Part shown: positions 13,104 through 24,763 of the stretch, one piece after another
How the letters are laid out: every line of letters starts with the position of its first letter
How positions within the stretch are numbered: the stretch's first letter is position 1
NCBI GenBank assembly: GCA_963716195.1
Contig: OY970293.1
Coordinates: forward strand, 622,909-686,908
Direction: 5' to 3'
From: an uncultured Solirubrobacterales bacterium
Lineage (GTDB): Bacteria > Actinomycetota > Thermoleophilia > Solirubrobacterales > JBBDJG01
DNA length: 64,000 nt
The notes under the pieces: generated by a model
Databases searched by the model: none
Told to the model about the DNA's origin: nothing
What the model saw: only the letters and a program-made list of their open reading frames with translations
Program-made: the position numbers and the translations under genes

Positions 13104-14816
13104 GTGCGCACGCGGGCGGAGGCGCTTCAAAAGCTGACAAGCGAGCGCTACGACGTGGTCGTAATCGGCGGCGGGATCACCGGCGCGGGCGTCGCGTTCG
13201 ACGCGGCGACGCGCGGGTACTCGGTCGCGCTCGTGGAACGGGATGACTTCTCGTCCGGCACGTCGAGCCGCTCGTCGAAGATGGTGCACGGCGGGCTGCG
13301 CTATCTCCAGAACTTCGACCTCGGGCTCGTGCGGGAGGCACTCGTGGAGCGCCAGTTGATGGTGCGCCTGGCGCCGCACCTCGTCAAGCCCCTGCCGTTT
13401 CTCGTGCCGGGCTTCGAGGGCGCGCGCCCCGACATCCGGGTGGGCATGGCACTCAACATGTACAACGTGCTCGCCACCCGCCGCCGCAAGCACCGCCGGC
13501 GCGCCGAGCGCGAGGCGGCCGAGGAGGGTGCCGAGTATTGGAGCCCCGACCGCCACCGCATGGTGCCCGGCGAGGAGGTGCTCGAGCTGATGCCGGCGCT
13601 CGAGACACGCCATCCGACGTCCGCCTACCTGTTCTATGACTGTCAGACGGACGACTCGCGCCTCGTCCTGACGATCCTCGGCGAGGCCGAGCGCTTCGGC
13701 GCCGTGTGCCTGAACGGCAGCCCGGTGGTGGAGCTGATCGAGGAGGGCGGACGGGCGGCCGGCGTGGTGTGCGAGGAGGAAGCCTCAGGCGAGCGGTTCG
13801 CGATCGCGGCGGACAACGTCGTCAATGCGACCGGTGTGTGGGCCGACCGCATCCGGCCGGAGGAGCTGCGCGAGGAGGAGGACGTCCCGGTGATCCGGCC
13901 GAGCCGCGGGACTCACATCGTGATCGACCGCGAGCGGCTTCCCCTGCACGCTGCCGCGATCGTGCCCGCGGGGCAGGGGCGGACGATCTTCGCGCTGCCG
14001 TGGCTCGGGCAGACCCTGATCGGCACCACCGACAACGACTATGAGGGCGGGCTCGATCACCCGCAGCCCTCGCAGGAGGACATCGCCTACCTGCTGAAGG
14101 CGGTCAACCGTTTCTTCGATCGCGACTTCGGATTCGACGAAGTCGCCGGCGCCTATGGCGGCGTCCGCCCGCTGATCGCCGCCGGCGATCCGAAGAAGAG
14201 CGTCGACATCTCACGACGGGCCGAGCTGTACGAGACCTCGTCCGGCATGGTCACGATCACAGGGGGAAAGCTGACCACCTGGCGCCGGATGGCGAAGGCG
14301 GTCGTCGACCGCATCGCCGAGCGCGAGTTTCGCGACGCGCCGTGCCGTACGCAAGAGATCCCCCTCGGCTACCCGGTGGAGGCAACAAGCCTGGCGGCCG
14401 TGCCGGGAGTGGGGATGCAGGCGCGCGAGCACCTCGCCAACCGCTACGGCCTGTTCGCGGAGCGCGTGCTGAAGATCTGCGAGGAGCAACCGGCCCTGGC
14501 CGGGCGGATCGTGGAGCCGCTGCCGGACTTGCTGGTCGAGGCGGTCGTGGCGGCCCGCTTCGAGCAGGCGCGCACGGTCGCGGACGTACTGCTCCGCCGC
14601 ACGCGCGTCGGCTTGCTCGCAGCGCGCAGCCTGACCGACGACCCGGAGCCCGCCCGGCGTGTGGCGCAGGCGATGGCGCCCGAGCTCGGCTGGAGCGGGC
14701 GCGACGCTAAACGCGAGGGACAGGCGTGGCTGGAGGCGGCAGCGGCGGAAGGGCTGGTGCCGGAGGAACCCGACGTGACCCCGGAGCTACTCGACGAGGT
14801 CGAGACCAAGCGCTGA
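13104..14816 (+). CDS. glpD: FAD-dependent glycerol-3-phosphate dehydrogenase
   Basis: VIGGGITGAG, GTSSRSSKMVHGGLRYL, NATGVW, IGTTD, GGKLTTWR, LLRRTR. Confidence 0.93.
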   Translation: MRTRAEALQKLTSERYDVVVIGGGITGAGVAFDAATRGYSVALVERDDFSSGTSSRSSKMVHGGLRYLQNFDLGLVREALVERQLMVRLAPHLVKPLPFLVPGFEGARPDIRVGMALNMYNVLATRRRKHRRRAEREAAEEGAEYWSPDRHRMVPGEEVLELMPALETRHPTSAYLFYDCQTDDSRLVLTILGEAERFGAVCLNGSPVVELIEEGGRAAGVVCEEEASGERFAIAADNVVNATGVWADRIRPEELREEEDVPVIRPSRGTHIVIDRERLPLHAAAIVPAGQGRTIFALPWLGQTLIGTTDNDYEGGLDHPQPSQEDIAYLLKAVNRFFDRDFGFDEVAGAYGGVRPLIAAGDPKKSVDISRRAELYETSSGMVTITGGKLTTWRRMAKAVVDRIAEREFRDAPCRTQEIPLGYPVEATSLAAVPGVGMQAREHLANRYGLFAERVLKICEEQPALAGRIVEPLPDLLVEAVVAARFEQARTVADVLLRRTRVGLLAARSLTDDPEPARRVAQAMAPELGWSGRDAKREGQAWLEAAAAEGLVPEEPDVTPELLDEVETKR

Positions 14817-14819
14817 CGC

Positions 14820-14990
14820 AGCCGGTGGAGCTCATCGACGCGGAAGAACGGATCGCGGTGCTCGCAAACGTGCCGATGCGCGCTCAGGCCAGCGGTATCG
14901 CTTGTCTCGACGATGGTTGACGGCTTGATCATCCGGATCGAGGAGTACTACGACTACGACGAAGCCCTCGAAGCGGTGGGGCTGTCGGAA
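14820..14990 (+). pseudogene. Fragment of a SnoaL/NTF2-like gene with an internal deletion or frameshift
   Basis: PVELIDAEERIAVLANVPMRAQASGIA, then in another frame MVDGLIIRIEEYYDYDEALEAVGLSE; no N-terminus. Confidence 0.6.
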
Positions 14991-15025
14991 GACGTCCGCA
15001 CTTCCGCACTTCTGCCTAGGCCTAG

Positions 15026-15670
15026 TTATCTGCTCCGCATGCGGTACTTGATGTGCGTGACGCCCGGCGCCTCGACCGCGCGCACCTGCTCTAGCTCGAT
15101 GCCGGCGTCGCCGAGGTTGTCGAACAGCCTGGCACCGCCGCGCAGGAGGTTTGGAACGACGGAGATGTCCAGCTCGTCGATCAAGCCGGCGGCCAGGTAC
15201 TGCTGGGTGACGTTTGCGCCGCCTATGAGCATGACGTCCTCGTCGCCGGCCGCTGCCTTCGCCTGCTCCAGCGCGGGCTCGATCCCGTCGGTGACGAAGT
15301 AGAAGGTCGTGCCGCCCTTCATCTCCAGCGGCTCGCGTGCGTGATGCGTGAGCACGAACACCGGTGTGTGGTAGGGCGGATCGTCACCCCACCAGCCTTT
15401 CCAGGACTCGTCCCAGGGGCCCGGTCCACCGCCGAACATGTTGCGGCCCATGACGTAGGCGCCGATGTTCTCCAACCGCTCGGCGAGCACCGCGCTGCTG
15501 GCGTTCACCTCGCCGCCCTCCCGGCCATGCGACTCGCGCCACGCCGCGAGCGGAAAAACCCAATCGTGAAGCTCCTCGCCGCCGATCCCGAGCGGGTTCT
15601 CCTTGCTCTGCTCTGGGCCGGCTGCGAACCCGTCGAGCGACATCGTGATGTTGAACCTCAGCTTGCTCAT
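15026..15670 (-). CDS. RibD C-terminal/dihydrofolate reductase family protein
   Basis: ITMSLDGFAAGP, VMGRNMF, PVFVLTH, IGGA...AGLIDEL. Confidence 0.9.
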   Translation of the reverse strand: MSKLRFNITMSLDGFAAGPEQSKENPLGIGGEELHDWVFPLAAWRESHGREGGEVNASSAVLAERLENIGAYVMGRNMFGGGPGPWDESWKGWWGDDPPYHTPVFVLTHHAREPLEMKGGTTFYFVTDGIEPALEQAKAAAGDEDVMLIGGANVTQQYLAAGLIDELDISVVPNLLRGGARLFDNLGDAGIELEQVRAVEAPGVTHIKYRMRSR

Positions 15671-15780
15671 CGCACCTCCTCGTGCTGTGTTGGTCGGTGG
15701 CTCGGACCACCCATAGGACGGCCGGGAGGCGGGAAACTAATCGGACGACACCCTGAGGCGCGGTGTCGTGGCCTTCGTGT

Positions 15781-15871
15781 GGGCCGGATCCTCCCGCCTA
15801 TACCGGGAGGATCCGGCCCGCCCCGTTCGACTGGGCTGGTTTCACCGCGTATATGACGGTCAAAATGGCCC
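15781..15871. repeat. Two adjacent TATA-loop hairpins (REP-like or terminator)
   Basis: Perfect 16-bp stem GGGCCGGATCCTCCCG-CCTATAC-CGGGAGGATCCGGCCC (15781-15819) and imperfect GGGCTGGTTTCACCG-CGTATATGA-CGGTCAAAATGGCCC (15833-15871). Confidence 0.7.
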
Positions 15872-15913
15872 GCTCACAGCATGTCGCGCCGCGCCGGCGT
15901 GAGATGTCGGTCG

Positions 15914-16372
15914 TCAGGTGTTGCCGGCCGCGAACTCCGAGGGATCAGGGATCTCGATCGGGCCCTCCTTCGGCTGGCCGATCCGGAGGTGGTTGCCGAA
16001 CGGGTCGCGCAGGCCGCAGTCCGTGCCGTAGAAGCGCTCGGTCGGCTCCTCGGTGAACTCCACGCCCTTGGCGAGCAGCTCCTTGTAGGTCTTGCGGATG
16101 TCGTCGACCGTGAGGATGCCGGCCATGCCCATCGCTCCCTTGGTGACGAGCTCGCGGATCACCTCCGCGGTCGCCTCGTCGTGAGCGGGCGGGCCGGGCT
16201 TCTCGAGCAGGAGCTGATGCCCGGGATCTCCCGGCACGTTGACGGTCAGCCAGCGCATGAAGCCGAGATCGGCGTCGGTGTTGACCTCCATGCCGAGCCT
16301 CCCGACGTAGAAGTCGAGCGCCTCGTCCTGGTCCAGCACGTATACCTGTGTATGTGTGATTTGTTTGAGCAT
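15914..16372 (-). CDS. VOC/glyoxalase family protein
   Basis: VYVLDQDEALDFY...RWLTV...FYGTDCGLRDPFGN. Confidence 0.9.
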   Translation of the reverse strand: MLKQITHTQVYVLDQDEALDFYVGRLGMEVNTDADLGFMRWLTVNVPGDPGHQLLLEKPGPPAHDEATAEVIRELVTKGAMGMAGILTVDDIRKTYKELLAKGVEFTEEPTERFYGTDCGLRDPFGNHLRIGQPKEGPIEIPDPSEFAAGNT

Positions 16373-16382
16373 GGGCGCGATG

Positions 16383-16808
16383 CTAGCCATGCCCGGGTCG
16401 CTCCGCTTCTCCAAAACTGCTCGGTCTCGTCCACGCCTTTGCGAAGCAGGCGGGAACGGCCCGCAGATCCGCGGCCGCGTCCCGGTAGCTGGTCGGTGAC
16501 TCGCCCACGATCGCGCGGAACGTGCGGCCGAACGTGCCGAGGCTTGTGAAGCCGACGTCGAGGCAGATCTCCGTCACGCTGCGGTCGGTCTCGCGCAACA
16601 GGAACATCGCCCGCTCCACCCGCCGCCGCTGCAGATAGCGATGCGGCGTCTCGCCGAAGGTGGCGCGGAACGTGCGTATGAAGTGCGCCTCGGAGACGTA
16701 GGTGATCCTCGCGAGCGCCCGGATGTCGAGCGGCTTTGCGTAGTCGCGGTCCATCGCATCGCGCGCCCGCAGCATCCGCCGGTTGGTCTCCTCGACGGCG
16801 CGGCTCAA
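16383..16808 (-). CDS. AraC-family transcriptional regulator
   Basis: HFIRTFRATFGETPHRYL...SVTEICLDVGFTSLGTF. Confidence 0.92.
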   Translation of the reverse strand: MSRAVEETNRRMLRARDAMDRDYAKPLDIRALARITYVSEAHFIRTFRATFGETPHRYLQRRRVERAMFLLRETDRSVTEICLDVGFTSLGTFGRTFRAIVGESPTSYRDAAADLRAVPACFAKAWTRPSSFGEAERPGHG

Positions 16809-17053
16809 CGCGGGTGGAAGAACAGCATGAACCCCACCAGCGCGACGGCGCCGGCCGCGAGCACCAGCCCAGTCGAGATGCCGAGGATGAACATCGTGAA
16901 CACGCCCATCAGCACGAGCGGGAAGCCGACGCCATACGCGGGCCCGGCTGCCCAGGGCGAGCTCTTCTCGGGGAACGAGTAGCCGCAGCCCCTGCAGCGC
17001 GCCGCGCGTTCACTCACGCGCCTCTTGCAGCGGGGGCAGGTCTTCTTCGCCAT
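16805..17053 (-). CDS. Small zinc-ribbon membrane protein
   Basis: MAKKTCPRC...CRGCGY followed by two TM helices; GGAGG RBS; overlaps the AraC start. Confidence 0.65.
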   Translation of the reverse strand: MAKKTCPRCKRRVSERAARCRGCGYSFPEKSSPWAAGPAYGVGFPLVLMGVFTMFILGISTGLVLAAGAVALVGFMLFFHPR

Positions 17054-17078
17054 CGGCCCAGAGACTAACCTCCTGTTG

Positions 17079-17987
17079 ATGGCCTCCACCCCCGCACGCA
17101 GGCTCGTGCTCAGGGACCGCACGCTCGAGCTCGGAGAGCGGCCGCTGCTGATGGGGATCCTGAACGTGACGCCCGACTCGTTCTACGACGGCGGCGCCCA
17201 CCCCGACCTGGAATCGCGCGTGCGTCGCGGCGCGGCGCTGCTGGCCGGCGGGTCGGACCTGATCGACGTGGGGGGCGAGTCCGGCGTCACGACCGGACCT
17301 GCGGTCGATCCGCACGAGGAGATCGAGCGCGTGGCGCCGATCGTCGAGCGCCTCACCTCCGAGCTCGGCGCCGTCGTCTCCGTCGACACCTACAAGCCCG
17401 CGGTCGCCCGCGCGGCGATCGAGGCCGGTGCTTCGCTGATCAACGATCCGAGCGGGCTCATCGATCCCGGGGTGGCGGAGGTCTGCGCGGACATGGGAGC
17501 GGGGCTCGTGATCACTCACACGCGCGCGCGGCCGAAGCAGAAGCTGCCCGATCCCCGCTACGCCGATCTCGTCGAAGACGTGCGGCGCTTTCTCGCCGCA
17601 CGGATCGAGCAGGCGATCGCTCTCGGCGTCGAGGAGGACCGGCTGATGCTCTGCCTGGGACCGGACCTCGGCAAGGAGCCGGCCCAGACGATCGAGCTGT
17701 TGCGGCGGATGGAAGAGCTGCACGACCTCGGCCGGCCGCTGCTGCTCGCTGTCTCACGCAAGGACTTCGTCGGGGCGCTCGTCGAGCGGCCACCGCGCGA
17801 GCGCCTCGCCGGCACGCTCGCGGCCGTGGCCTACGTCACCGAGCGCGGCGCACACGTGCTTCGCCTCCACGATGTGGCCGAGGCACGTGATTTCCTGACG
17901 GTGTCGGCCGCGCTCGAAGGGAAGTCCCGGGTGCCGTCGCAGCTTCGACTTGCGGATGATCTAAAGCGGGAGGCTTCAACCGGATGA
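17079..17987 (+). CDS. folP: Dihydropteroate synthase family protein (divergent)
   Basis: MGILNVTPDSFYDGG, SVDTY, IND, SRK, RLHDV; atypical GGESGVT and CLGPDLGK. Confidence 0.85.
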   Translation: MASTPARRLVLRDRTLELGERPLLMGILNVTPDSFYDGGAHPDLESRVRRGAALLAGGSDLIDVGGESGVTTGPAVDPHEEIERVAPIVERLTSELGAVVSVDTYKPAVARAAIEAGASLINDPSGLIDPGVAEVCADMGAGLVITHTRARPKQKLPDPRYADLVEDVRRFLAARIEQAIALGVEEDRLMLCLGPDLGKEPAQTIELLRRMEELHDLGRPLLLAVSRKDFVGALVERPPRERLAGTLAAVAYVTERGAHVLRLHDVAEARDFLTVSAALEGKSRVPSQLRLADDLKREASTG

Positions 17988-18772
17988 GCGACATCCATTT
18001 CAAGATCGCCCACATCTCCGACATCCATTGCGGGTCGCCGCACTTCCAGCCCGACCTGCTCGAGCGCGCGATCGAAGAGATCAACGAGCTCAGCCCGGAT
18101 GTCACGATCGTCAGCGGCGATCTCACCACGGACGGCTTCCGGCCCGAGTACGAGCTTGCGCGGGAGTACCTGGGCTCGATCCGCTCGGAGGCATTGATCA
18201 TCGTCCCGGGCAACCACGACTCGCGCAACGTCGGCTACGTCCACTTCGAGGAGATCTTCGGGCCGCGCACCGCGATCATGCACAAGGACGGAGTGTCGAT
18301 CGTCGCCGTCGACTCCTCCGAGCCCGACCTCGACTTCGGCCAGATCGGGCGCAACCGCTACCCCTACATCGAGGAGGCGTTCTCACATCCCGCGGACCTG
18401 CGCATCTTCGTCATCCACCACCACCTGCTGCCCGTTCCGGGCACGGGCCGCGAGCGCAACATCGTCTACGACGCAGGAGACCTGCTCGAGGTCCTGATCC
18501 GCTCAGGCGTGGACATCGTCCTGTGCGGGCACAAGCACGTTCCATATGCCTGGAAGATCGAGGACATGTTCGTGGTATCGGCCGGCACGGTGTCGTCGCT
18601 TCGCCTCCGCGGTCACACCCGTCCCTGTTACAACGTGATCGAGATCGGGACCGATCGCGTGTACGTCTCTCGCAAGTACCCGTTCGACGTGCGCGAGCCG
18701 ATCGTCGAGTTCACCCCGGGCACGCCACACGAGTACCACAAGGCGGAGGCCTTCCGGGAAGGGGTTCGCTGA
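17984..18772 (+). CDS. Calcineurin-like metallophosphoesterase (CpdA/Icc-like)
   Basis: ISDIH, SGDLT, PGNHD, HHH, CGHKH. Confidence 0.92.
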   Translation: MSDIHFKIAHISDIHCGSPHFQPDLLERAIEEINELSPDVTIVSGDLTTDGFRPEYELAREYLGSIRSEALIIVPGNHDSRNVGYVHFEEIFGPRTAIMHKDGVSIVAVDSSEPDLDFGQIGRNRYPYIEEAFSHPADLRIFVIHHHLLPVPGTGRERNIVYDAGDLLEVLIRSGVDIVLCGHKHVPYAWKIEDMFVVSAGTVSSLRLRGHTRPCYNVIEIGTDRVYVSRKYPFDVREPIVEFTPGTPHEYHKAEAFREGVR

Positions 18773-18796
18773 CGCAAGCGCGCCGGCGTGTTGCCG

Positions 18797-20134
18797 ATGC
18801 GAGCCATTGCCCTCATAGACGGTGAGCACCACCCGGCGGTCGCGCGCGACGCACTCGCGCTGGTGGCGGCCGAGCACGACCTGCGCGAGGTGGTGTTCGT
18901 GGGCGGCGAGGAGAAGGTCGCCGACGCGGTGCTCGCGGACCCGGCCGCGCCCGGCCACTACGGGCGCGAGGTGTTGATCGCACCGGAGGATCCCGGCGCC
19001 GCGCTGCGCGAGGTCGCGGGTGGGGGTGCCGATGTTGTGATCGATCTGTCGGGTGAGCCCGTCCTCGGCGGCGATCGGCGGATGGAGCTCGCCAGTGTCG
19101 CGCTGTCGCTCGGGCTCGAGTACCGCTGCGCCGGATTTCACGTGGCACCGCCCCCGCGGGAGCGGGTGGACGCCACGCGCCCGGTGATCGCAGTGATCGG
19201 CACCGGCAAGCGCACCGGCAAGACTGCGCTCGCGGGTCATTACGCCACGGTGTTGAGGGATCGTGGGTACAGCCCGGTGATCGTCAGCATGGGGCGGGGC
19301 GGGCCACCCGAGCCGCAGCTCGTGCGGGCGGAGGAGCGACCCAATACGGCGCGCCTGCTGGAGATCGCGCGGAGCGGCGGGCACGCTGCGTCCGACTACC
19401 TCGAGGACGCCGTGGTCGCCGGTGTGGCCTGCGTCGGTTGCCGGCGCTGCGGTGAGGGACCGGCGGGCGAGGTGTTCGACTCGAACGTGGTCGAGGGTGC
19501 GCGGCTTGCTCTCACGCTCGACCCGGACCCGCTTCTCCTGGAGGGAAGCGGCGCGGCGCTGCCGCCCGTGGCCGCCGACCGCACCGTTTGCGTGACGACC
19601 GCGCAACGCGCGGGACGTGAAGCGCTGGGGTACCTCGGCCCCTACCGGCTGCTCTGCTCGGACGTGCTGGTCGTGTTCGGGGCGGAGGCGGTCGACGCGG
19701 CTGCGCTAGCGGACGTCAAGCAGCGGCTCGCCCGCTGGATCGCGCCGGAGTCGATCGTCGCGTGTGCGCTGGTGCCCGAGCCGCTCGGGCACATTGCGGC
19801 GGGGTCGCGGGTGGCGTTCTTCTCCACGTCGGAGGCGCACGAGGGGCCGTTGCGCGAGCGGCTGGAGCAAGCGGGCGCCGAGCTGTGCGTCGCTTCGGCG
19901 AACCTGGCGCGCCGCCGCCACCTCGAGCCCGATTTGGAGCTCGCAGCCCGTGAGCGCTGCGATGTTTATTTGACCGAGCTGAAGGCGGCTGCGATCGAGG
20001 TCGTGGCAGAGGAGGCCGAGCGCCTCGGTGTGCGCGTCGAGTTCGTGCGCAACCGCCCGCGCCCGCTGCCCGGGGAGCCCGATCTCGACGAGCGCCTGGC
20101 AAGGCTGTATGAGGAGGCCCTGACGCCGGCATGA
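18797..20134 (+). CDS. cpgS: Cyclic 2,3-diphosphoglycerate synthetase
   Basis: ALIDGEH-P, GGEEK, DLSGEPV, IGTGKRTGKT, MGRGGPPEP, HAASDYLEDA, GCRRCG, LEGSGAA, LTELKAAAI, matching archaeal cDPGS motifs. Confidence 0.88.
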   Translation: MRAIALIDGEHHPAVARDALALVAAEHDLREVVFVGGEEKVADAVLADPAAPGHYGREVLIAPEDPGAALREVAGGGADVVIDLSGEPVLGGDRRMELASVALSLGLEYRCAGFHVAPPPRERVDATRPVIAVIGTGKRTGKTALAGHYATVLRDRGYSPVIVSMGRGGPPEPQLVRAEERPNTARLLEIARSGGHAASDYLEDAVVAGVACVGCRRCGEGPAGEVFDSNVVEGARLALTLDPDPLLLEGSGAALPPVAADRTVCVTTAQRAGREALGYLGPYRLLCSDVLVVFGAEAVDAAALADVKQRLARWIAPESIVACALVPEPLGHIAAGSRVAFFSTSEAHEGPLRERLEQAGAELCVASANLARRRHLEPDLELAARERCDVYLTELKAAAIEVVAEEAERLGVRVEFVRNRPRPLPGEPDLDERLARLYEEALTPA

Positions 20135-21069
20135 ACGCGCACCGCCCGGATCGCATAATCGTGGTTCGCAGCGACTACGGCCTGCCGTACTCGAAGGGTC
20201 TGATGGCGCAGTCGATCATGGGTGCCGGCCTGTCGCCGGAGCGCTCGCACGGCATCGCGCGCAGGATCGAGCAACGCCTCGACGAGCGTGACGATCCCGA
20301 GGTGAGCGTCGAGGAGCTGCGTGCACTCGCCGAGCAGGTGCTGCTGGACGAGGAGGGCGAGGCGGTCGCCAAGCGCTTCCGTCAGTGGGGGCTGGCCGAG
20401 CGGGTGGCCCGGCCCGTAGTGATCCTGATCGGCGGCGTCACCGGGGTCGGCAAGTCGACGATCGCGACCCAGCTCGCGAACCGGCTCGCGATCACGCGTG
20501 TCGTCGCGACCGACCAGGTGCGCCAGGTCGTGCGCGCGTTCCTCTCGCGCGACTTCATGCCCGCGGTCCACTATTCGTCGTTCGACGTCGCGCGCCACAT
20601 CCCCGAACTGGGCGAGGGGCGCGACGCGACGATCGCCGGCTTCCTGCGCCAGGTGGCGGACATCGCCCCCGGCATCGACGCGCTCGTGGAGCGGGCGGTC
20701 TCCGAGCGCAGCCGGATCGTGATCGAGGGGGTCCACCTGCTGCCCGAGGTGCCGAGCGTGCGCCTGTGCAAGCAGGCCGTGACTGCCCGCGTGCTGATTG
20801 CGGTCACCGATGAGCAGGCTCACCGCTCGCATTTCCACATGCGCGGCATAGAGTCCGCGCGGCCGACCCGCCGCTACCTCGAGGCGTTCGACCGCATCCG
20901 CACCATGCAGGAGTACCTGATCGCGCGCGCCCGCGAGAGCGGCACGCCGGTCGTGGACGAGGGCAGCCTGGAGCCGGCGTTGACCCGGGTGATGGAGGTG
21001 GTGCTGGACGAGATCGCGGCGCAGACCGCCGACGCCGATCCCGGCGCTAAGGTGTTAGGGGAGCAATGA
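20131..21069 (+). CDS. pgk2: 2-phosphoglycerate kinase (ATP-cone + P-loop)
   Basis: LPYSKGLMAQS ATP-cone start; LIGGVTGVGKSTIA, TDQVR, IEGVHL, RYLEAF; coupled to cpgS. Confidence 0.88.
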   Translation: MNAHRPDRIIVVRSDYGLPYSKGLMAQSIMGAGLSPERSHGIARRIEQRLDERDDPEVSVEELRALAEQVLLDEEGEAVAKRFRQWGLAERVARPVVILIGGVTGVGKSTIATQLANRLAITRVVATDQVRQVVRAFLSRDFMPAVHYSSFDVARHIPELGEGRDATIAGFLRQVADIAPGIDALVERAVSERSRIVIEGVHLLPEVPSVRLCKQAVTARVLIAVTDEQAHRSHFHMRGIESARPTRRYLEAFDRIRTMQEYLIARARESGTPVVDEGSLEPALTRVMEVVLDEIAAQTADADPGAKVLGEQ

Positions 21070-21758
21070 GATTCTTCATCGACACGGGATCGGTCGCTGA
21101 GGTCGAGGAGATCGCCGCCTGGGGCATCCTGTCCGGCGCGACGACCAATCCGAGCCTGCTCGCCAAGGAAGAGGGCGACCCCGGCGACATCATCCGCCGC
21201 ATCTGCGATCTCGTGCGCGGTCCGGTCAGCGCAGAGGTCGTCTCCGAAGACGCGGCTGGGATGGTTGAAGAGGGCCGGGTCCTGAACGCGCTGCACGAGT
21301 ACACGATCGTGAAGGTCCCGTTCTCGTCCGAGGGTCTGAGCGCCACGCGGACGCTCGCGGACGACGGCATCACCGTCAACATGACGCTCGTGTTCTCCGC
21401 CAACCAGGCGCTGCTGTCGGCGCAGGCAGGCGCGGGCTACGTCTCCTGCTTCATGGGCCGGCTCGACGACATCTCGATCGACTCCGCCGCCGTGCTGGCC
21501 GAGATCGTCGAGGCCCTGCGTCCCGGCGGCACGACGGCCCAGGTGCTGGCGGCTTCGATCCGCCACCCCGAGCATGTCGTCACCGCGGCACAGCTGGGCT
21601 GCGAGGTCGCGACCGTGCCGGGCAAGATCTTCCGCCAGATGCTCCAGCACCCGCTCACCGACCAGGGGCGCGAGCGCTTCAAGAGCGACTGGGAGACGCG
21701 CCCCGAGTTCGTCGAGTGGCTGGAGGCTCTCGTGGCCAAGCAGCCCACCTCGGCCTAG
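21066..21758 (+). CDS. tal: Transaldolase/fructose-6-phosphate aldolase (short TalC/FSA type)
   Basis: FFIDT, GATTNPSL, VSAEV, VKVP, NMTLVFS, GRLDD, AASIRHP, HPLTD. Confidence 0.92.
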   Translation: MRFFIDTGSVAEVEEIAAWGILSGATTNPSLLAKEEGDPGDIIRRICDLVRGPVSAEVVSEDAAGMVEEGRVLNALHEYTIVKVPFSSEGLSATRTLADDGITVNMTLVFSANQALLSAQAGAGYVSCFMGRLDDISIDSAAVLAEIVEALRPGGTTAQVLAASIRHPEHVVTAAQLGCEVATVPGKIFRQMLQHPLTDQGRERFKSDWETRPEFVEWLEALVAKQPTSA

Positions 21759-23030
21759 ATGGCCCTCGCTTCCGAGCTGGAGGGCAAGAGCCTCGCCGAG
21801 CTCCACGAGCTCGCCGCGGCCCGCGGGGTGCCGGGCTTTCGCGCGCTGCGCCGCGCGGAGCTGATCGAGGCGCTCGGCGGAGGTGGCGAGAGCCACCCCG
21901 AGATCGACACGCTGGACGAGGCTCTGGACGAGCTCGAGGCCGAGGACGAGGCCGAGGACGAGGACGAGAGCGAGGAGTCCGCGGCGGCCGACGAACCCGA
22001 AGAGGAGGCCGAGACCGCCACCGGCGTGCTGGAGATCATGCCCGACGGCTTCGGCTTCCTGCGCGTGGAGGGATTCGGCCGCTCCCGGGACGACGTGTTC
22101 GTGACGCGCTCCCAGATCAGGGCGCTTGGCCTGCGGACGGGTGACGAGCTGACGGGCCCCCTGCGCCGGCGCCGGCGCTCGGAGCGCCACTCATCCCTCG
22201 GCGAAGTGAGCATGGTGAACGGCCGCGACGCAGACGACCTTCAGGACCGTCCCGATTTCGCCGAGCTGACACCCACGTACCCGAGCAACCCGTTGATGGT
22301 GGCCGCCGGCTCTGCCGATCTCGACCTGCGCATGCTGGACTTCGTGGCGCCGCCCGTCAAAGGCGCCCGGCTTTTGATTTCAGGCCCGCCGCGGAGCGGG
22401 ACCACGACGCTCATGCGCAGGCTGCTCGACGGCGTCGCGTCCGACGGGTCGGTGCTTCCGTTCGTAGTCCTGGTGGACGCGCGCCCTGAGGAGCTGGCCG
22501 ACTGGCAGCGCTCTGCCTCGTATCCGGTGTATGGCTCCGCGGCCGATGCAACGGCGGACACCGGAGTCGAGCTCGCGACCGTCACCCTCGAACGCGCGCG
22601 CCGGCTCGTCGAGCAGGGCGATGACGTCCTGGTAGCGATCGACTCCCTCTCACGCCTCGCTCGCACTCATGGGCTGGCGCGCTCTCGCGGTCGCGGCGAT
22701 GAACCGGGCACGGGGTTCCAGTTTGCGAAGCAGTGGTTTGCCGCCGGCCGCAACACCGAGGAGGGCGGCTCTCTCACGATCGTCGCTACCGCTCATGCCG
22801 CGGGGCCGCTGCACGAGGCGCTCGCGGACGTGGCGACCGCGGAGGTTCGGCTCGACGGCGACCTCGCCGCGGCGGGCAACGAGCCTCCGATCGACGTCAG
22901 GCTTTCGTTCACTCGCCCGGAGTCGCTGCTCGCCGGCCAGGCGGACGCGTTGCGCCGCCTGCATGCCGCGGTTCAGCCGCTACCGGTGCGCGAGGCCTGG
23001 CAGCACGTCGCGGACCAGGTCCGCGGCTAG
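21759..23030 (+). CDS. Rho-like protein with a degenerate ATPase domain
   Basis: Rho N-terminal helices, acidic linker, GVLEIMPDGFGFLR...LRTGD, DARPEE, IDSLSRLAR, GGSLTIVATA; Walker A reads GPPRSGTTT. Confidence 0.8.
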   Translation: MALASELEGKSLAELHELAAARGVPGFRALRRAELIEALGGGGESHPEIDTLDEALDELEAEDEAEDEDESEESAAADEPEEEAETATGVLEIMPDGFGFLRVEGFGRSRDDVFVTRSQIRALGLRTGDELTGPLRRRRRSERHSSLGEVSMVNGRDADDLQDRPDFAELTPTYPSNPLMVAAGSADLDLRMLDFVAPPVKGARLLISGPPRSGTTTLMRRLLDGVASDGSVLPFVVLVDARPEELADWQRSASYPVYGSAADATADTGVELATVTLERARRLVEQGDDVLVAIDSLSRLARTHGLARSRGRGDEPGTGFQFAKQWFAAGRNTEEGGSLTIVATAHAAGPLHEALADVATAEVRLDGDLAAAGNEPPIDVRLSFTRPESLLAGQADALRRLHAAVQPLPVREAWQHVADQVRG

Positions 23031-23034
23031 TGGC

Positions 23035-23505
23035 CTAGCGGCGGTACGCCGCCGGTTCCCAGGAGGGCTCCGGCGCGAGCTCGATCAGCTCGGAGTTGCG
23101 GTCGCGTTGCAGGTAGCCGAAGCTCTGCGTGTCTTCGCGGAAGACGATGTCGAGCTCGCCCTCCTTGACGCGCTGGTCGAGCCAGGCGCTGCGGAAGACG
23201 AGTCGGCGCAGCCAGTGCACGAGCGAGCGGTCGGCCGGGCCGACGAGCTCGAGCCAGCGGCGGTTGACGTGGTCGCCCAGGGGAGAGGCCGGCTCCCGGA
23301 TCTCGCCGTTGACGGCGAGGTTGACTAGGTCGTCGAGCTCCTCCTCGCTCAACCCGGGATCGACGAACCCCAGCTTGACGGCGGCCTGCTCGACGCGCTG
23401 GCGGAAGTCGTTCTCGTTGAACGTGAAGCGCAGCTCGCCGTACTCGAGCACGTAGTCGTCCCCTGACTCGTAGTTCCCTCGTCTCTTGGTTTCGTGCTCG
23501 GCCAT
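23035..23505 (-). CDS. Hypothetical protein
   Basis: 156-aa ORF with host-like codon usage (DDYVLEYGELRFTFNE...WLRRLVFRSAWLDQRV). Confidence 0.75.
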   Translation of the reverse strand: MAEHETKRRGNYESGDDYVLEYGELRFTFNENDFRQRVEQAAVKLGFVDPGLSEEELDDLVNLAVNGEIREPASPLGDHVNRRWLELVGPADRSLVHWLRRLVFRSAWLDQRVKEGELDIVFREDTQSFGYLQRDRNSELIELAPEPSWEPAAYRR

Positions 23506-23587
23506 ATGCTGTGCGCCTCGTCTCCCGTTCATTATCGGGCGCGAGGCGTCTTCATGTTACGACCATCTCCTTTTGCGAGGGGGAGCT

Positions 23588-24340
23588 ATGACAGATGCGT
23601 TGCAGGGAAAGGTTGCGGTGGTCACCGGCGCGACGTCCGGGATCGGCGAGGCGACGGCGAGGCAGCTGGCGCAGGCGGGAGTCGCCGTGGCGCTCGCGGG
23701 ACGCCGCGCCGAGAGGCTCGAAGCGCTCGCCAAAAACATCGAAAACGCCGGTGGCAAGGCGATTGCGGTCACCACCGACGTCACGAAGGAAGACGAGGCA
23801 AAGGCCCTGATCGAGCGCACGAAGTCGGAGCTCGGCAGGCTCGACATACTCGTCAACAACGCGGGGGTGATGTTGCTCGGACCGGTGCAAGATGCGGACA
23901 CCGAGGAGTGGCGGCGGATGCTGGACGTAAATCTGATGGGGCTGCTCTATTGCACGCATTCCGCGCTGCCGATCATGCGCGAGCAACAGTCCGGGCACAT
24001 CGTGAACGTGTCCTCAGTGGCGGGCCGCACGGCCAGCCTCGGCGTCGCCGTCTACAACGCGACCAAGTGGGGGGTGGTCGGCTTCTCGGAGGGGTTGCGC
24101 CAGGAGGTCCTCCATCTCAAGGTCCGCGTCACGGTGATCGAGCCCGGTTACGTGCTCACCGAGTTACAGGCTCACTCCACCAACCCGATGGCGAGAGCGG
24201 CGATCGATCAGATGGAGAAGGACACCGAAGCTCCGCTGCAGGCGCAAGACATCGCCGATGCGATCTACTTCGCGGTCTCCCGCCCGCAGCACGTGAACGT
24301 GAACGAGATCCTCGTGCGCCCGCTCGAGCAGTCGCGCTAG
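23588..24340 (+). CDS. SDR family oxidoreductase
   Basis: VTGATSGIG, LVNNAG, YNATK; GAGGGGAG RBS. Confidence 0.93.
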   Translation: MTDALQGKVAVVTGATSGIGEATARQLAQAGVAVALAGRRAERLEALAKNIENAGGKAIAVTTDVTKEDEAKALIERTKSELGRLDILVNNAGVMLLGPVQDADTEEWRRMLDVNLMGLLYCTHSALPIMREQQSGHIVNVSSVAGRTASLGVAVYNATKWGVVGFSEGLRQEVLHLKVRVTVIEPGYVLTELQAHSTNPMARAAIDQMEKDTEAPLQAQDIADAIYFAVSRPQHVNVNEILVRPLEQSR

Positions 24341-24343
24341 GAG

Positions 24344-24763
24344 TCAGCTCAGCCGCAGGCCGCCGTCGGTCGTGACGGTCCAGCGCGGGTTGTGGGCCAC
24401 CTCCCACGGGTGACCTTCCGGATCGATGAAGACGGAGCTGTAGCCGCCCCAGAACGTCTCTGCCGGCTCGCGGCCGATCGTGGCGCCGGCGGCGCGCGCC
24501 TCCTCGGTGACGGCGTCAACCGCTTCACGCGAGCCGACGTTGTGCGCCAGCGTCACACCGCCCCAGCCGCCGCCGTCCTCGACGCAGCTGTCCTCCGCGA
24601 GGCGCGAGCGGTCCCACAGCGCGAGCACCATGTCGCCGGACTGGAAGAAGACGACGTCGTCGCCGGGAGCGGCTCCCGTCTCCCAGCCGAGCGCTTCGTA
24701 GAAGCTTCGCGCACGGTCCAGGTCGCGCACGCCGAGAGTCACCAGTGTGAGTCGCGGTTTCAT
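24344..24763 (-). CDS. VOC family protein
   Basis: LVTLGVRDLDRARSFYEALGW...FWGGYS...DPEGHPWEVAHNP. Confidence 0.92.
   Translation of the reverse strand: MKPRLTLVTLGVRDLDRARSFYEALGWETGAAPGDDVVFFQSGDMVLALWDRSRLAEDSCVEDGGGWGGVTLAHNVGSREAVDAVTEEARAAGATIGREPAETFWGGYSSVFIDPEGHPWEVAHNPRWTVTTDGGLRLS

Follow-up and report, generated by a model that had tools for sequence, protein, structure and literature searches.

A three-gene cassette with homologues of archaeal cyclic 2,3-diphosphoglycerate enzymes inside a six-gene locus of a Solirubrobacterales bacterium

The window analysed here is a 64,000-nucleotide stretch of contig OY970293.1 (assembly GCA_963716195.1), from an uncultured Solirubrobacterales bacterium. 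Six consecutive genes in it include homologues of the two enzymes of the archaeal pathway to cyclic 2,3-diphosphoglycerate (cDPG), namely 2-phosphoglycerate kinase (2PGK) and cDPG synthetase (CpgS, encoded by cpgS). A preliminary description of this locus had treated all six genes as one module for the synthesis, turnover and effector functions of cDPG. Our analysis shows that the functional unit is three genes, metallophosphoesterase-cpgS-2PGK, and not six. These three genes are strictly co-occurring and adjacent, while their neighbours, a paralog of dihydropteroate synthase (DHPS, FolP), a short transaldolase of the fructose-6-phosphate aldolase (FSA) type, a Rho-like gene and glpD, are an older block that persists with or without the cassette. 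We consider it probable, on the whole, that the three genes would form a cDPG cycle placed inside this older housekeeping block.

The cpgS product is an intact homologue of the archaeal enzyme, as had been read from its motifs. It matches the solved cDPG synthetase of Methanothermus fervidus (PDB 8ORK/8ORU) at E 7e-69 with 236 bits, its residues 5-439 of 448 aligning to residues 6-447 of 8ORK, such that both the N-terminal domain and the P-loop C-terminal domain are covered. A third deposited cDPG synthetase, 9SXB, is matched at E 6e-67, and a profile built from 13 bacterial cpgS homologues finds the solved synthetase at E 2e-98. In the M. fervidus enzyme, the structural passages of PMC10690619 name K145 and R146, together with E45 of the other subunit, as contacts to 2,3-diphosphoglycerate (2,3-DPG). 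The same passages assign Mg binding to T150 and D208 and contacts to ADP to E305, P335, T353 and E404. The corresponding residues of the window protein (M. fervidus numbering in brackets) are E42/K43 (E45/K46), K141/R142 (K145/R146), K145/T146 (K149/T150), D203 (D208), T347 (T353) and E397 (E404), and neither these residues nor the Walker A motif GTGKRTGKT vary in any of the 13 bacterial homologues. Of the three ADP contacts placed in the alignment, two are conserved relative to the M. fervidus enzyme, as are the Walker A motif, the residues that contact 2,3-DPG and those that bind Mg; P335 could not be assigned a counterpart (the 8ORK position reads F by count of the printed sequence). Scans of the 448-residue product against Pfam and NCBIfam gave no matches, the library versions used being without a CpgS model; PF27272 (CpgS_N) is precomputed on an identical database protein and on the nearest Atlas clusters.

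The 2PGK homologue matches NF003259 over positions 5-296 of 306 (E 5e-82), with an ATP-cone at residues 12-85 (31.8 bits, cut-off 25.8), a P-loop domain from residue 97 and the Walker A motif GGVTGVGKST, and it is the only gene of its family in the genome. In the comparison with the 2PGK family, the full-length match with ATP-cone and P-loop stood, and the equivalog level was not reached, a point weighed below. No match was returned by a PDB search with this protein.

Gene neighbourhoods were surveyed by tblastn of the window proteins on the 80 best-matching loci, and adjacency of 2PGK was counted in those with at least 1 kb visible (n=76). As had been expected of the gene order in relatives, it is conserved: 2PGK comes after cpgS in all 76 loci, and 73 of them have the phosphoesterase upstream of cpgS in the same orientation (not seen in L013, L014 and L026), the gap between the two being 100 nt or less in 59 of 74 loci. 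The same association holds for presence and absence. A fixed set of 81 genomes from the window's class contains cpgS in 43 genomes and 2PGK in those 43 and no others, and an ortholog of the phosphoesterase (adjacent, at least 57% identical) is present in 42 of the 43 cpgS-positive genomes and in none of the 38 cpgS-negative ones, making it a genuine conserved partner of the pair. Genes inserted between phosphoesterase and cpgS in eight Thermoleophilaceae loci were inspected and set aside as heterogeneous and uninformative; they comprise a two-component system, an AbiEi-like gene, a reductase/desaturase, a glyoxal-oxidase-like gene, a polyketide cyclase and several genes without a family.

The preliminary description placed cpgS homologues in a few bacteria, which understates their spread. 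In an even sample of the phylum, cpgS is present at E <= 1e-20 in 176 of 301 genomes; the 11 unpublished genomes among them are positive throughout, and leaving them aside gives 165 of 290. The protein database, clustered at 90%, contains more than 5,053 homologues, most of them named cDPG synthetase by the Joint Genome Institute, and with E <= 1e-30 there are 174 clusters at the 50% level. Two peptide patterns of the bacterial type are matched by at least 580 species genomes; the best 80 of these belong to Solirubrobacterales, Thermoleophilaceae, Gaiellales, other Actinomycetota and metagenome-assembled genomes (MAGs) of Candidatus Aquicultor. By their record titles, several MAGs of cassette-bearing relatives come from fen, palsa, groundwater and soil-type samples. 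The nearest relatives of the window are MAGs of Solirubrobacterales and Thermoleophilia, and its earlier placement as an actinobacterium was correct.

The flanking genes are independent of the cassette. All 13 other genomes sampled from the window's order, 97-100% complete, are without cpgS, 2PGK and the phosphoesterase. Seven cassette-less rho regions of the same order nonetheless keep parts of the block, arranged as glpD-fsa-rho in L086, L087 and L092, glpD..folP-fsa-rho in L088, glpD..folP-rho in L089, folP-rho in L090 and glpD-rho in L091; fsa adjoins rho in L086, L087, L088 and L092, and L088-L090 encode a FolP of the paralog kind. The cassette, for its part, lacks the folP paralog in 37 of 69 loci, and no fsa accompanies it in 43 of 64. 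Among the 64 loci with at least 2.5 kb visible, 2PGK is followed by glpX in 26, by fsa and then rho in 21, by rho directly in 14 and in 3 by no gene of this list. The class sample has 30 more cpgS-positive genomes whose best Rho match is found on the strand of cpgS, 1.3-3.0 kb downstream from it; 29 of these matches exceed the Rho cut-off (the match in G056 is split). With that of the window, G000, counted, Rho lies downstream of cpgS in 31 of 43 cpgS-positive genomes; the regions L093-L095 were checked directly. Since the flanking genes persist without the cassette, and the cassette elsewhere precedes glpX or a canonical rho, the cassette therefore appears to sit at an old gluconeogenesis/rho locus and to have been lost from some lineages. 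The identity of cpgS, fsa and glpD to the window drops in parallel with taxonomic distance, which fits vertical descent. We take Bacillus subtilis also to have tal and glpX close to rho.

The glpX genes found directly after 2PGK encode a class II fructose-1,6-bisphosphatase (about 355 bits; L038:12192-13217, L049:12233-13207 and 24 further loci). These loci are Gaiellales-type and other Actinomycetota, in which glpX holds the place of fsa, and it overlaps 2PGK in L038.

Of the three cassette proteins, the phosphoesterase shows the strongest conservation, with 56-78% identity to the window across loci compared with 41-66% for cpgS. It matches PF00149 (Metallophos) with 72 bits (cut-off 21.5), and in 29 orthologs the metal motifs DxH, GD, GNH[D/E], H, GH and GHxH are all invariant (D13, H15, G45-D46, G76-N77-H78-D79, H145/H146, G182-H183 and H185), along with R81, R95, R123, R156, R158, R207 and R209. 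An AlphaFold (AF2) model has a pLDDT (predicted local distance difference test) of 84.6 and a pTM (predicted template modelling score) of 0.86. In Foldseek searches its nearest fold is Rv0805 (22% identity, E 1.5e-14), with GpdQ and the purple acid phosphatases next, and a search of the ESM Atlas returned generic cluster names only. Rv0805, a class III cyclic-nucleotide phosphodiesterase, and GpdQ, a glycerophosphodiesterase (PDB 3IB7, 2HY1, 3D03), are the best fold matches at E 1.5e-14 to 6e-13 and have the binuclear metal motifs in common with it; however, identity is only 21-23%, and the cassette enzyme has its own invariant arginine-rich loops and a fixed tie to cpgS and 2PGK. The natural reading of this partnership is that the phosphoesterase is a candidate hydrolase of the cyclic pyrophosphate, or else a candidate 2,3-DPG phosphatase. 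A cDPG hydrolase activity is known from Methanothermobacter, and we know of no gene for it; our literature search likewise found no gene assigned to cDPG hydrolase.

From homology and gene order we infer what the substrates are, that cDPG is the product, that the phosphoesterase acts as a hydrolase and what the cassette does physiologically. The cassette most likely forms a short cycle that branches off lower glycolysis/gluconeogenesis. In it, the 2PGK homologue would convert 2-phosphoglycerate to 2,3-DPG, and its N-terminal ATP-cone suggests control by the adenylate level. CpgS would then close the cyclic pyrophosphate at the expense of ATP, yielding cDPG, which the soluble binuclear metallophosphoesterase may reopen or dephosphorylate, returning carbon and phosphate to the pool. 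In a non-thermophile, cDPG could serve as a turned-over buffer of phosphate, carbon and energy or as a stress solute. There is a precedent for storage: according to PMC1224877, cDPG stores carbon and phosphate in Methanothermobacter, its hydrolysis being the task of a separate enzyme. Compared with the pathway of Methanothermus fervidus and Methanothermobacter (PMC10690619, PMC1224877), the window has the same two enzyme families in the same domain architecture. It differs in its host, a bacterium with relatives from the sample types given above and not a hyperthermophilic methanogen, in the overlap of cpgS with 2PGK and their joining to a soluble metallophosphoesterase, and in the lower family score of 2PGK. 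A wider version of this proposal is more tentative, and we hold it with somewhat less than even confidence: that cDPG, instead of being a thermoprotectant confined to methanogens, is a common metabolite among Actinomycetota of soil and groundwater that are not thermophilic. Its synthesis would lie with CpgS and a 2PGK under adenylate control and its release with the phosphoesterase, whose gene would be the first linked to cDPG breakdown, and the trio would act as a buffer of phosphate, carbon and energy wired into gluconeogenesis.

Several observations weigh against a cDPG cycle. The 2PGK homologue stays below both NCBIfam equivalog cut-offs, scoring 275.6 bits against the 343 of NF003259 and 284.6 against the 603 of NF008994, and the NCBIfam model also matches in Thermus and Deinococcus. 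To our knowledge, cDPG has not been reported from either genus. In the case of cpgS, the window protein has E300 (M. fervidus E305), but this position varies across the 13 homologues. The gap between phosphoesterase and cpgS exceeds 500 nt and is filled by unrelated genes in 13 of 74 loci, and one cpgS-positive genome of the class, G046, is without the phosphoesterase. The phosphoesterase subfamily is also not exclusive to the cassette. A paralog 49% identical to the cassette protein is encoded in the window's genome (G000:C1:1806448-1807197 = L096:7380-8198, minus strand), where it ends an operon with a transketolase, a 6-phosphogluconolactonase-type gene and a ROK kinase (tkt-pgl-ROK); it retains 60 of 69 invariant residues including all of the arginines listed above, and it is the sole copy in two cpgS-negative genomes. 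No hydrophobic segment was found in the sequence of the cassette phosphoesterase, whereas the archaeal hydrolase (cDPG to 2,3-DPG) is described in PMC1224877 as membrane-bound and inhibited by K+ and Pi. Finally, the abstract of PMC10690619 gives cDPG as exclusive to hyperthermophilic methanogens, and our literature search found no report of cDPG or its genes in bacteria, a broad taxon-ranked listing having been inspected at the top only. The term 'diphosphoglycerate' is absent from the Gaiella occulta genome paper.

Part of this evidence would also suit a cassette that acts on a related but different substrate, with another cyclic or linear anhydride as the product, a kinase for some other 2-hydroxy or phospho acid, and a phosphoesterase serving that compound. 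The sub-threshold kinase score and the distant relation of bacterial cpgS to the characterised enzyme (the 236-bit match) leave room for such a shift, as does the close phosphoesterase paralog in a pentose-phosphate/sugar kinase operon, and the empty PDB search provides no structure in which to compare the substrate contacts of the kinase. We nevertheless regard a change of substrate as unlikely, given that all named 2,3-DPG and Mg contacts of the M. fervidus enzyme are invariant in the bacterial set, that kinase and synthetase are paired without exception (43 of 43 genomes) and that the kinase architecture matches the archaeal model end to end. Alternatively, the important end product might be 2,3-DPG itself, serving for example as cofactor or regulator, with CpgS and the phosphoesterase buffering its level and cDPG not accumulating. 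A hydrolase conserved along with the synthetase would fit a rapidly cycled pool, and the ATP-cone of the kinase suggests regulated flux, but an ATP-consuming synthetase kept by 176 of the 301 sampled phylum genomes would be costly for buffering alone, and we think this improbable.

We consider it very improbable that the six genes make up a single functional module, with the transaldolase and the atypical DHPS and Rho serving cDPG synthesis and turnover as metabolic partners or as an effector. That reading draws on the overlapping or abutting reading frames that link all six genes, on the adjacency of folP and phosphoesterase in 33 of the 34 loci having both, on the hexose-phosphate enzyme gene (glpX or fsa) that directly follows 2PGK in 47 of 64 loci, with rho following in 35 of 64, and on the altered active sites of both the DHPS paralog and the Rho-like protein. 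But the folP paralog, fsa and the rho-like gene are adjacent in same-order genomes that have no cassette, the cassette is often found without folP or fsa, and other families of the class carry it upstream of a canonical, high-scoring Rho. The module is unsupported because the seven cassette-less genomes still carry members of the block of glpD, folP, fsa and rho. Nor does the Rho-like protein stand as an extra effector: it is the only Rho homologue of the genome and therefore occupies the ordinary, ancestral rho locus. The phosphoesterase-cpgS-2PGK cycle inside an older block thus remains the reading that we prefer.

The cassette is common and its genes are already machine-annotated. What is new here is the presence/absence test that separates the cassette from its backbone, the census of downstream genes, the phosphoesterase paralog and the description of a decayed Rho ATPase site. 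Should bacteria with the cassette indeed form cDPG, textbooks would be off by an entire domain in where they place the compound, and its role would need rethinking because the relatives carrying the cassette come from fens, palsas, groundwater and soil-type samples. The phosphoesterase would be a concrete candidate for the enzyme of cDPG breakdown. For annotation, the unit is three genes, and the folP paralog, fsa and the rho-like gene should not receive a cDPG label through operon membership.

The layout of the locus is given in Table 1. The six genes lie on the plus strand from 17025/17079 to 23030, and the layout reported previously was borne out by open reading frame (ORF) coordinates and junction sequence: ATGA overlaps join folP to the phosphoesterase (17984-17987), cpgS to 2PGK (20131-20134) and 2PGK to tal (21066-21069), and the TAG stop of tal directly abuts the ATG of rho at 21759. 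A spacing of 15 nt separates the phosphoesterase stop from the GTG of cpgS at 18788; an alternative ATG at 18797 would give a form of 445 residues, as in an identical protein-database entry (P0001). G+C content is 66-73% across the unit, and a compositional break is absent. Judged by these junctions, the six genes are predicted to be one tightly packed transcription unit.

Table 1. Genes of the six-gene locus, in positions of the window.
Feature	Position	Strand	Remarks
DHPS (FolP) paralog	17079-17987	+	First gene of the transcription unit; ORF opens at TTG 17025
Metallophosphoesterase	17984-18772	+	PF00149; partner of cpgS/2PGK, candidate cDPG or 2,3-DPG hydrolase
cpgS, cDPG synthetase homologue	18788-20134	+	Match to PDB 8ORK/8ORU; GTG start
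2-phosphoglycerate kinase (2PGK) homologue	20131-21069	+	NF003259; ATP-cone and P-loop kinase
Short transaldolase/FSA (TalC/FSA type)	21066-21758	+	TIGR00875, TAL_FSA
Rho-like gene, degenerate ATPase site	21759-23030	+	TIGR00767, Rho_RNA_bind

Upstream of the unit, glpD is found at 13104-14816, and minus-strand genes for RibD_C, glyoxalase, an AraC-type regulator and a zinc-ribbon protein occupy 14913-17122, between glpD and folP. In relatives, folP starts 100 nt or less after glpD in 25 of 30 loci, and because of this closeness we take the intervening block to be a lineage-specific insertion that severed glpD from the operon. As the minus-strand genes split glpD from the unit, the unit therefore begins at folP. 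A search of 14000-24500 for riboswitches and other known RNAs gave none at E <= 0.1. Scans for promoters (one promoter-like site, on the minus strand, with 0.4 expected) and for terminators (four terminator-like sites, with 2.9 expected) were uninformative.

In G046, the cpgS-positive genome without the phosphoesterase, an ORF of 946 residues with a PPDK_N (pyruvate phosphate dikinase ATP-binding) domain stands directly upstream of cpgS-2PGK-glpX-rho (L097:5141-7981, plus strand, G046:C23).

The DHPS paralog scores 262 bits against TIGR01496 (cut-off 162.6), and the genome has a second, better DHPS elsewhere (330 bits), 44.6% identical to the paralog. Its earlier label as atypical holds. Loop 2 reads GGESGVTTG compared with GGESTRPG, and CLGPDLGK stands in place of DPGIGFGK; in the whole paralog group, loop 2 is GGESG(V/R)T.. 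and the DPGIGFGK block has become (D/C)-x-G-P-D-(F/L)-x-K, while the window paralog keeps the MGILNVTPDSF, SVDT, LIND, SRK and RLHDV blocks. Loop 2 and the GFGK block are the regions which we take to form the para-aminobenzoic acid/pyrophosphate site, and a loss of ordinary DHPS activity is plausible because the changed blocks are these. Orthology with the mycobacterial FolP2 (PDB 2VP8) was considered and rejected, as ordinary DHPSs outrank 2VP8 with both the single sequence and the profile (275 bits for ordinary DHPSs in the profile search, 217 for FolP1 and 210 for FolP2). In comparison with FolP proteins including M. tuberculosis FolP2, the window paralog shares the full-length DHPS fold above the TIGR01496 cut-off; its group differs in the replacement of the TRPG of loop 2 and of GFGK, and its genome holds a separate canonical DHPS. 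The paralog is conserved beside rho/fsa even in genomes without the cDPG cassette. In the case of the FSA gene, the match to TIGR00875 is marginal (246.9 bits, cut-off 245.95), TAL_FSA is matched with 168 bits, and a second, long transaldolase is encoded elsewhere in the genome.

The Rho-like protein does not reach the Rho cut-off (242 bits against 509 for TIGR00767), although Rho_RNA_bind (PF07497) is matched with 82 bits. A search of the genome for another Rho found none, the next matches being ATP-synthase-like genes at 27 bits. Relative to T. maritima Rho, PPKAGKTT has become PPRSGTTT and IDERPEE has become VDARPEE; the Walker A lysine (GKT to GTT) and the catalytic glutamate (DER to DAR) are lost, and the term atypical applied to this Rho at the outset was well chosen. 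Among 45 aligned Rho homologues (loci L006-L095), GK[TS] and DER are both kept in 9, and one or both are lost in the other 36 in lineage-specific ways. Within the ATPase domain, canonical Rho proteins are on average 80% identical to one another and the degenerate ones 48%, compared pairwise. Rho exceeds the cut-off in 37 of the 81 class genomes and in none of the 14 from the window's order, where the best scores are 81-254 bits.

The Rho-like state of this order is partly in print already, as a 2024 survey (PMC11347177) counts Conexibacter woesei and Baekduia soli among the species with no functional Rho and with Rho-like sequences only. Both are, like the window's host, Solirubrobacterales-type Actinomycetota without canonical Rho. 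[quoted passage not shown] The decay of the ATPase site across the order raises the questions of how transcription is brought to an end in these high-G+C bacteria and what function the retained protein has. In two genomes of the class with canonical rho downstream of the cassette, rho carries in-frame stops (two TGA in G024:C4:511221-512441 and one TAA in G060:C39:2897-4279), which may be assembly errors or mark pseudogenes.

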